Source of the DNA: a virus
Taxonomy: Duplodnaviria; Heunggongvirae; Uroviricota; Caudoviricetes
Length of the DNA stretch: 64,000 nt
Direction: 5' to 3' (one strand)
IMG/VR virus record: IMGVR_UViG_2875713109_000001
This document shows, piece after piece, positions 34,697 through 35,523 of the stretch (positions within the stretch are counted from its first letter, which is position 1; each line of letters starts with the position of its first letter). The translations under genes and the position numbers were made by a program. The notes under the pieces are model-generated. The model ran no database searches and was not told the origin of the DNA. It saw only the letters and a list, made by a program, of their open reading frames with translations.

Positions 34697-34942
34697 TTGG
34701 CAGAACGTGTTGATGATGCAGAGCTGAGCATGAATCAATTAGAAGCTCTCAAAGACATGGCCATCGATAACATCAGAAAGCAGGCACAGGTCGTGAGCCA
34801 GGTATTTACAGGGAAGTGTCGTTACTGCAATGAACCGATCGAATCAGGCATCTATTGTGACGCTGAGTGTGCGCAATGGCACAGGGAAGAGCAGGCCGCA
34901 AAACAGCGTAAATATGGCATGCGACCGGCAGGATTTGACTGA
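34697..34942 (+). CDS. TraR/DksA-family zinc-finger protein
   Basis: 81 aa with CRYC...CDAEC four-Cys pattern near C-terminus; TTG start with SD gagga. Confidence 0.5.
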   Translation: MAERVDDAELSMNQLEALKDMAIDNIRKQAQVVSQVFTGKCRYCNEPIESGIYCDAECAQWHREEQAAKQRKYGMRPAGFD

Positions 34943-34944
34943 TT

Positions 34945-35523
34945 GTGTTGCGCTTTACTGAGGAAGAGTTTCAGGCTTTTAGTGAGCGCCGAAATAAGGG
35001 GCGGTCCAGGCCAAAAACCAAAAAGGATCCATTCTTATCGCTTGCGCCGGTAAAAGAAGTTTCTCCACATGCGAAGGCACTTGCAGCACTGGCAAAGAAC
35101 CCAGACCTGCGCGACGGAAATTGCGAGCACTTCGAGCAGGTTTTCATTTTTGATTACTTCGAACGCAAGCACCCTGACATCTATGAGCTGTTGCATGCAA
35201 CGCCTAACGGAGGGAAACGTTCAAAAGCAACCGCCGGGAAAATGAAGGCTGAAGGGCAGAAAAAAGGTTATCCGGACATGAGTCTCGATAAAGCATGCGG
35301 TATTTATCACGGCATGCGAATTGAGCTTAAAGAACCAAATGGTAAAGCCCCGACGAAAGAGCAGATCGCCTGGATGCGCAGGCTTAGAGAGGAAGGTTAC
35401 TACGTCGTTCTTGCGTATGGTGCAGAACAAGCGATAACCGCCATCCTGGAATACATGAGCCTTAAAAAGGGTGAGGCTATTGAGCATGTATTGAACGGTG
35501 ACAAGTGGTTGTATGCTGCGTGA
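34945..35523 (+). CDS. VRR-NUC domain nuclease
   Basis: PNGG...GYPDMSL...IELKEPNGKAPTKEQIAWM matches VRR-NUC PD-(D/E)xK pattern; GTG start. Confidence 0.6.
   Translation: MLRFTEEEFQAFSERRNKGRSRPKTKKDPFLSLAPVKEVSPHAKALAALAKNPDLRDGNCEHFEQVFIFDYFERKHPDIYELLHATPNGGKRSKATAGKMKAEGQKKGYPDMSLDKACGIYHGMRIELKEPNGKAPTKEQIAWMRRLREEGYYVVLAYGAEQAITAILEYMSLKKGEAIEHVLNGDKWLYAA

Follow-up and report, generated by a model that had tools for sequence, protein, structure and literature searches.

The pmgL and pmgM genes of a P1-like phage-plasmid are predicted to encode a divergent TraR-like protein and a VRR-NUC junction resolvase

P1 is both a workhorse phage and the prototype of a large phage-plasmid group through which resistance genes spread. 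About one-fifth of its genes carry the placeholder label "putative morphogenetic function". In this study, two of these genes, pmgL and pmgM, were analysed in a 64,000-nt stretch of viral DNA (IMG/VR record IMGVR_UViG_2875713109_000001; hereafter, the window), which, judged by its sequence, is part of a P1-like phage-plasmid. An original prediction, made by a model without database searches, had assigned positions 34697-35523 to a TraR/DksA-like zinc-finger protein and a VRR-NUC nuclease. Two tandem open reading frames (ORFs) on the plus strand, 34697-34942 and 34945-35523, occupy exactly this interval, with a gap of 2 nt between them. In a megablast search with 34300-36000, 18 phage records, including P1, P7, RCS47, SJ46, and JL22, span the entire stretch at 97.5-98.9% identity (98.4-98.9% for P1, RCS47, and relatives). 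The same ORFs are annotated in the P1 genome (AF234172) as pmgL (formerly orf83a) and pmgM (formerly orf83b), both with the "putative morphogenetic function" label. They are divergent from the tail/baseplate operon 26-25-7-24-6-5.

pmgL (34697-34942, plus strand) starts at a TTG codon, with a GAGGAA Shine-Dalgarno sequence 7-8 nt upstream. It encodes a divergent TraR-like protein of 81 aa with an N-terminal helix (D6xxE9xS11), Cys4 knuckles (C41/C44/C54/C58), and a C-terminal helix. The P7 annotation starts pmgL at Met12, an alternative ATG. Homologues with 35-54% identity align up to residues 3-6, upstream of Met12, and the conserved acidic motif of PmgL is also upstream of Met12. Residues 1-11 are invariant across 80 near-identical P1-like IMG/VR loci, which were used for all allele counts. 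pmgM (34945-35523, plus strand) starts at a GTG codon and encodes a VRR-NUC (PD-(D/E)xK) nuclease of 192 aa with an N-terminal extension of approximately 55 aa. The possibility of chance ORFs was ruled out by the P1 annotation, by diverged homologues of both proteins, and by the intact pmgL in 79 of the 80 loci (frameshifted in one). Codon 47 of pmgL (34835-34837) is polymorphic, with a split of about 40:60: P47 occurs in the window and in 31/80 loci, and S47 occurs in reference P1, P7, and 48/80 loci. P47 is the family consensus residue and aligns with TraR P43.

A 43-aa ORF (34830-34961, plus strand) lies in the +1 frame relative to pmgL and shares sequence with the 3' half of pmgL and with the start of pmgM. 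In databases, more than 10 "proteins" of 72-87 aa represent pmgL with a frameshift at differing points, and all end in ...DRQDLTD(C/Y)VALY. The 80-88-aa PmgL "variants" in databases were considered as alleles with a longer zinc loop. This was rejected, as they are frameshifts into the 34830-34961 ORF and mostly singletons. The frameshifted "proteins" are most likely mutations or assembly errors, not a second product.

The nuclease assignment of PmgM was borne out. Residues 77-179 match 4QBL "VRR-NUC" in a phmmer search against Protein Data Bank (PDB) sequences (E 8.1e-17). The AlphaFold model of PmgM (pLDDT 88) has a resolvase-like alpha/beta fold. In Foldseek, this model matches 4QBL with a TM score of 0.83 (rmsd 2.3 Å, E 6.9e-10), followed by 4QBN, 4QBO, and FAN1 nuclease domains. 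More than 100 homologues of PmgM are present in the protein database. Many carry a precomputed match to PF08774 (VRR_NUC), those with a source name are mostly called VRR-NUC domain proteins, and many are encoded on 80-110 kb contigs typical of phage-plasmids. The catalytic residues E61, D111, E127, and K129, plus Q140, are invariant in an alignment of 35 homologues. They correspond to the PD-(D/E)xK set (Glu on helix 1, Asp, and Glu-x-Lys) plus a family-specific Gln. The roles of the conserved Gln and Lys in VRR-Nuc enzymes have been described (PMC4103454). Family and fold thus strongly support PmgM as a VRR-NUC nuclease.

The PD-(D/E)xK core with E, D, ExK, and Gln is shared by PmgM with psNUC (4QBL), stNUC (4QBO), and saNUC (4QBN), and the long beta1-beta2 linker of psNUC is also present in PmgM. 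psNUC forms dimers, has a sub-nanomolar affinity for four-way junctions, and cuts them symmetrically to yield ligatable products (Pennell et al., PMC4103454). Homodimer formation and symmetric four-way junction cleavage have been demonstrated for psNUC, stNUC, and saNUC (PMC4103454). In comparison with psNUC, PmgM carries approximately 55 extra N-terminal residues and is known here from its sequence and predicted fold. By analogy, PmgM is most likely a junction or branch resolvase for P1 replication or recombination intermediates. T4 endonuclease VII, T7 endonuclease I, and lambda Rap/NinG debranch replicating or recombining phage DNA before packaging. The role proposed for PmgM is like theirs, but the folds are unrelated.

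Pfam and NCBIfam searches with PmgL returned only noise (VATC, E 0.047; YdaE, E 0.67) and no zf-dskA_traR match. A phmmer search of PmgL against the PDB gave no meaningful match; a Pygopus PHD finger at E~1 was all that it returned. Profile comparisons gave a different result. PmgL matches the whole profile of phrog_54, "DksA-like zinc-finger protein", in PHROGs (E 1.7e-13), and this profile is also matched by F-plasmid TraR (E 2.2e-20) and four distant PmgL relatives. Exhaustive searching of 1.84 billion representatives with phmmer returned only 39 PmgL relatives, almost all of 57-91 aa. The family consensus is xxDxxDxAxxxEE...AI...R...TGxCxYCxEPxxxGxFCDAxCxxDxE. With the family profile, the best PDB match is TraR (5W1S; E 0.022), in an alignment that runs from residue 1 of both proteins through DxxDxA, the helix, and the first CxxC-x-P. 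In hhalign, the PmgL family aligns with F-type TraR plus lambda Orf73 at a probability of 96.6% (E 6.5e-10; PmgL 4-65 on TraR 1-69). A TraR hidden Markov model (HMM) scores 15 of the 32 PmgL family members at 13.9 bits or higher (PmgL, 14.1), versus a maximum of 10.2 bits in 1000 composition-matched shuffles. In the reciprocal comparison, lambda Orf73 and F TraR reach 22.5 and 18.0 bits, respectively, with the PmgL HMM.

Specific positions are conserved as well. Among the 32 family members, the first position of DxxDxA is D in 31, the second is D in 27 and E in 5, and the third is A in 20, S in 5, and T in 3; the motif usually starts at residue 2-3. Each of the four Cys is present in 31/32 members. 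PmgL residues E16, I23, and R27 are aligned to E13, I20, and R24, which are invariant in TraR. The DxxDxA motif of TraR (D3, D6, and A8) is located at the extreme N-terminus, where PmgL has an acidic motif of this type in the variant form D6xxE9xS11, and the E, I, and R of the helix are conserved in TraR as well. F TraR, lambda Orf73, P2 Orf82, and VP882 Orf61/TraR resemble PmgL in length (approximately 70-80 aa) and in the order of N-terminal helix, Cys4 module, and C-terminal helix. The AlphaFold model of PmgL (pLDDT 77.7, pTM 0.43) has a helix at 7-31, knuckles at 39-55 (pLDDT approximately 91), and a helix at 56-73, a predicted arrangement that reproduces the three-part plan of TraR. Hence, four-Cys knuckles between two helices were found for PmgL, alongside the VRR-NUC fold of PmgM; the absence of a zinc ribbon or nuclease fold, which would have spoken against the original prediction, was not seen. 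RNA polymerase binding and inhibition of rrnB P1 have been described for TraR, lambda Orf73, and other homologues from phages, and both Asp residues are required for this (PMC9239242; PMC2613031). At the level of sequence profiles, PmgL is a TraR homologue; it is a divergent relative that probably works like TraR.

The divergent region upstream of pmgL is 146 bp long and differs from that of P1 at one base. The Lpa-dependent late promoter LPpmgL (34590-34608, plus strand; -22 element 34590-34598, -10 34603-34608) was transferred from AF234172 and is identical to the P1 sequence. In the P1 annotation, the same -22 element is used by LP26, the late promoter in the divergent direction. Two predicted sigma-70 promoters, P2pmgL (TTGAAT-16-GAAAAT) and P1pmgL (GTGCAA-16-TATCAT), are placed within 34600-34660 on the plus strand by the AF234172 annotation, and a third, PpmgN (35491-35517, plus strand), lies within the 3' end of pmgM. 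Our own promoter scan of 34400-35800 yielded no sigma-70 site above threshold and did not recover P2pmgL, P1pmgL, or PpmgN. Therefore, the promoter positions rest on the GenBank annotation.

The C1 consensus is a 17-bp asymmetric operator, ATTGCTCTAATAAATTT, which overlaps a promoter or lies just downstream of one. A scan for C1 operators found 15 sites with three mismatches or fewer in the window, versus 0.37 expected by chance. The operator O26 (formerly Op82; 34623-34639, minus strand; ATTGCACTAATAATTTT) matches the consensus at 15/17 positions, and the P1 and P7 annotations list it as a monovalent C1 operator. It overlaps the -10 of P2pmgL and the -35 of P1pmgL. The weak operator-like site predicted between this pair and the following genes proved to be the annotated operator Oppp (formerly Op83; 35530-35546, minus strand; CATGCACTAATTAATTT), a 13/17 match annotated in P1 and P7. 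It lies 7 bases past the pmgM stop codon and just 3' of PpmgN. Both operator sequences are the same in the window, P1, and P7. The assignment of both sites to C1 comes from the GenBank annotation (AF234172; AF503408), and C1 control of pmgL and pmgM would be consistent with it. The TraR-type genes of lambda (pL) and VP882 (PR) resemble pmgL in being carried by a temperate phage or plasmid and placed under repressor control. No terminator-like site was found on the plus strand at the pmgM-pmgN junction, and the downstream genes pmgN, pmgO, pmgP, ppp, and pmgQ (35590-38245, plus strand) have no predicted terminator before them.

Expression timing is available from P1vir RNA sequencing (RNA-seq). 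The log fold changes at 10 and 30 min are 7.0 and 11.0 for pmgL and 8.0 and 12.0 for pmgM. The known early C1-controlled genes ban (6.9 and 11.9) and ssb (7.5 and 11.7) behave similarly, and the values of the neighbouring late genes are 3.6 and 10.7 for gene 25 and 3.4 and 10.4 for gene 26 (PMC8201110 Table S1). Since the pmgL and pmgM values are like those of ban and ssb, the two genes can fairly be grouped with the early class, on data that come from P1 and not from this element. The predicted "C1-controlled early operon" therefore stands as to the operator over both pmgL promoters and the rise at 10 min. The word "early" is incomplete, as P1 also annotates the Lpa-dependent LPpmgL.

The linkage of the two genes was assessed in distant genomes, with the context of distant PmgM relatives taken from the contigs that encode them. 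The pmgL-pmgM pair is kept in the distant, P1-like Cronobacter phage JK004, where the upstream context differs. No PmgL-like ORF occurs within 3 kb of the PmgM homologues with 47-57% identity on phage-plasmid contigs from Enterobacter, Serratia, and E. coli. In Achromobacter phage AchV4, a PmgL-like gene ends a DNA-metabolism cluster and no VRR-NUC gene is nearby. Because the adjacency is confined to P1-like genomes, pmgL and pmgM represent independent functions that share a promoter in P1-like phages. A functional pair like QisA-TraR of VP882 was rejected on the same ground, and a complex is not supported. QisA-TraR resembles pmgL in being a repressor-controlled TraR homologue co-transcribed with a neighbour in a phage-plasmid. 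In VP882, however, the partner gp60 is upstream, has no known function, and forms a complex with TraR, whereas the neighbour of pmgL is a nuclease gene and is downstream. In JK004 and several non-P1 phage-plasmid contigs, the pmgM homologue lies a few small genes 3' of a giant protein of approximately 2200-2280 aa. At the three such loci with Pfam data on record, the giant proteins have methyltransferase and SNF2-helicase domains. This neighbourhood recalls P1 DarB and is not adjacent to tail genes.

Several observations weigh against the reading developed so far, and most of them concern PmgL. PF01258, which true TraR proteins carry, has no match at E<=1 in PmgL or any of its 31 relatives, and weak matches to the DUF2116 "treble clef" occur in 16/32 family members. 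The zinc motif is CxxC-x9-CxxxC in PmgL and CxxC-x9-13-CxxxC family-wide, never the CxxC-x17-CxxC of TraR/DksA, and such spacing is typical of FCS/treble-clef fingers. In the tip of P1-type PmgL (D6-D-A-E9-L-S11), Glu replaces the second Asp and Ser replaces the Ala, and the N-terminus is extended by 3 residues. Residue 2 of TraR lies approximately 4 Å from the active-site Mg (PMC6970531), TraR D6N is inactive (PMC2613031), and imperfect motifs or extensions reduced the activity of other phage TraR homologues (PMC9239242). The pTM of the PmgL model is low, and Foldseek searches of this model against the PDB and BFVD gave no significant TraR/DksA match. The top matches, MYND and YacG-type fingers, were non-significant; DksA2 ranked 12th (E 3.2) and a viral "DksA/TraR C4-type" protein 25th (E 0.71). 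In BFVD, one unnamed viral protein was significant and the next two matches (E~0.01) were uncharacterised Vibrio phage proteins; one BFVD match was labelled DUF2116. Fold searches with this predicted model thus neither confirm nor refute TraR kinship. These data would suit a small protein of a generic kind, with a treble clef or zinc ribbon (DUF2116, YacG, or MYND-like), that binds a different partner, for example DNA, gyrase, or a phage protein, and whose TraR likeness is confined to an amphipathic N-terminal helix. We regard this as rather unlikely. The hhalign match to TraR/Orf73 covers 62 columns and includes the C-terminal helix, the acidic motif of the DxxDxA type occupies the extreme N-terminus, as it does in TraR, the E, I, and R positions coincide with invariant TraR residues, and the shuffle controls score below the PmgL family. 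The predicted "TraR/DksA-like zinc-finger protein" is therefore upheld as a TraR relative by hhalign, PHROG 54, and the top PDB match. Given its Cys spacing and the missing PF01258 and Foldseek matches, PmgL is not filed as a canonical TraR/DksA C4 zinc-finger protein on the basis of its sequence.

For PmgM, the Pfam VRR_NUC score falls slightly short of the gathering cut-off (21.2 versus 23.8 bits, E 3.1e-4), and the N-terminal 55 residues, which comprise a short conserved motif (M-LRF-S/T-x-E-W/F), a linker that is basic and modelled at low confidence, and a helix, have no assigned role. [quoted passage not shown] PmgM could then be a flap or fork nuclease, or a nuclease directed at host or competitor DNA like the T6SS VRR-Nuc toxins, targeted by the N-terminal motif and basic linker that psNUC lacks. 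This is improbable in our judgement: the closest solved relative by far is the resolvase psNUC, including the beta1-beta2 elaboration; there is no FAN1-type helical insertion that blocks dimerisation; and no adjacent immunity gene was identified. As to regulation, the annotated sigma-70 promoters are weak consensus matches. As to phenotype, under CRISPR interference (CRISPRi), plating was at an efficiency of 1.3 with pmgL and 0.38 with pmgM knocked down, and the two genes were scored as non-essential; both are also non-essential in the deletion survey tabulated in the same paper (PMC10695390), and in-frame deletions of both were made by Gonzales et al. (PMC9024508). This lack of a plating defect after deletion or knock-down (PMC10695390; PMC9024508) also counts against the proposed roles. 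Several phage debranching nucleases show clear packaging or yield defects if mutated, whereas pmgM knock-down merely lowers plating to the value above. The same data bear on a morphogenetic function of PmgL and PmgM, as labelled in P1 and, as "baseplate or tail tube", in P7. The genes adjoin and diverge from the tail/baseplate operon, and pmgL and gene 26 have a late-promoter element in common. Nevertheless, in-frame deletions and CRISPRi knock-downs plate normally, the domain content is that of a nuclease and an RNA polymerase-factor-like protein, and expression at 10 min is approximately 4 log units above that of genes 25 and 26. Since pmgL and pmgM are dispensable for plaque formation, the "morphogenetic" label is unsupported; a morphogenetic role is very improbable and largely refuted. 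A defence or anti-defence role was also rejected, as PADLOC found no match for any of the six cluster proteins.

On balance, we consider it fairly probable that pmgL and pmgM are neighbouring, independent accessory genes of a P1-like phage-plasmid, which encode a TraR-branch factor and a VRR-NUC junction resolvase and are repressed by C1. Junction cleavage by PmgM, RNA polymerase binding by PmgL, and the biological roles of both are what we infer here. In a lysogen, C1 at Op82 would keep pmgL and pmgM off. After derepression, both would be transcribed early and would continue to be transcribed late via the annotated late promoter. A PmgM dimer would recognise and cut four-way or branched DNA as a VRR-NUC-type Holliday-junction resolvase, and would clear recombination or replication branches from P1 concatemers ahead of headful packaging. 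Presumably, resolvases of the host or other functions of P1 serve as backup. The N-terminal helix of PmgL would enter the secondary channel of host RNA polymerase and bring its acidic tip (D6, E9) close to the active site, and the small Cys4 zinc module would rest on the channel rim. Transcription initiation would thereby shift away from rRNA-type promoters.

The direction of the PmgL effect can be predicted from its loop. Relative to TraR, PmgL has a 7-residue deletion that corresponds to TraR A47-P53 and includes R49 and K50. In TraR, R49, K50, and E46 form the interface to the beta' Si3 domain, which contributes to activation and not to inhibition (PMC6970531). Because the loop with the Si3-contact residues R49 and K50 is deleted, PmgL would most likely act as an inhibitor rather than an activator. 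TraR P43A weakened polymerase binding (PMC6970531); by analogy, the S47 allele of laboratory P1 may be weaker than P47. P1vir grows 2.5-6 times better in dksA-deficient cells, excess DksA is without effect, and the cause is unexplained (PMC8198154). A bolder version of the TraR reading would be that PmgL founds a short-loop TraR-like subfamily (CxxC-x9-13-CxxxC, without the Si3-contact loop) whose members bind the RNA polymerase secondary channel purely as inhibitors, in competition with host DksA. P1 would then supply a DksA mimic of its own, which could explain the P1vir-dksA effect, and P47 and S47 would be strong and weak alleles. We hold this version to be doubtful.

The genes, operators, and promoters of pmgL and pmgM are already annotated in the P1 records AF234172/AF234173. 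RefSeq already names PmgM a VRR-NUC protein and its P7 copy a Holliday junction resolvase, and PHROG-based annotation names PmgL-like proteins "DksA-like zinc-finger protein". In the literature examined on P1 and DksA and on TraR homologues, no statement that P1 encodes a TraR-like factor was found. The literature searches likewise turned up no biochemical or genetic work on RNA polymerase binding, rrnB P1 inhibition, or dksA complementation by PmgL. The TraR homologue study tested lambda, P2, VHML, VP882, and a Xenorhabdus prophage, with P1 not among them (PMC9239242), and neither pmgL nor TraR is mentioned in the two papers on the better growth of P1vir in dksA mutants (PMC8198154 among them). 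The original prediction was essentially correct, each of its four parts holding with qualifications. The novelty is low: the finding is correct and ordinary, with one fresh point, the TraR-like protein of P1 itself, which the P1/DksA papers leave unmentioned. The short-loop zinc module is a subfamily feature and not a new kind of system. Genes like pmgL and pmgM are common in temperate phages, and the general picture is unchanged. Naming pmgM a probable junction resolvase gene and pmgL the gene for a divergent TraR-like factor corrects the P1 annotation. If PmgL acts on RNA polymerase, it would be a structurally minimal TraR variant, useful for separating inhibition from activation, and would bear on why host DksA limits P1 growth.

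Downstream of Op83, pmgN (35590-35745) encodes 51 aa from a GTG start with a GGGAG Shine-Dalgarno sequence and overlaps the start of pmgO by 59 nt. It scored as essential by CRISPRi but not by deletion (PMC10695390), and its expression is raised in dksA hosts (PMC8201110). These data suggest a polar or regulatory effect at the Op83/PpmgN region. The genes that follow (35687-38245; pmgO, pmgP, ppp, and pmgQ) resemble a small protein or sugar modification cluster, and all four are non-essential in P1. PmgO and PmgP are paralogous MptE/DUF115-like proteins, which PHROGs names alpha-2,3-sialyltransferase. The earlier label "MptE-like" for these two rests solely on Pfam matches below threshold. The product of ppp is a NinI/lambda-type Ser/Thr phosphatase, and that of pmgQ is a GT-A-like glycosyltransferase (phrog_1962, DLD motif, weak PDB match to a GT8 galactosyltransferase).

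Elsewhere in the window, a second immI-like module (50800-52500) lies between pacB (49314-50798) and c1 (52524-53375, minus strand). It comprises an operator-like site (50802-50818), an isrK-type RNA (50893-50971), a C4 antisense RNA (51016-51103; 76.7 bits), an icd-like ORF (51158-51379), and an ORF for a 371-aa antirepressor-like protein (51376-52491). The normal immI module is at 4033-4316, with an operator-like site (4033-4049), a1/b1 targets (4110-4162), and a C4 RNA (4231-4316). Reference P1 matches just part of 44000-60000. The segment 50600-51500 has a full match in RCS47, JL22, and vB_EcoM-673R5, where the annotations are "ant", "roi", and "Icd". Three tRNA genes in 25070-25223 and 27028-27103 (Asn-GTT, Thr-TGT, and Met-CAT) are as expected for P1, and the last of them is trnI in the P1 annotation.

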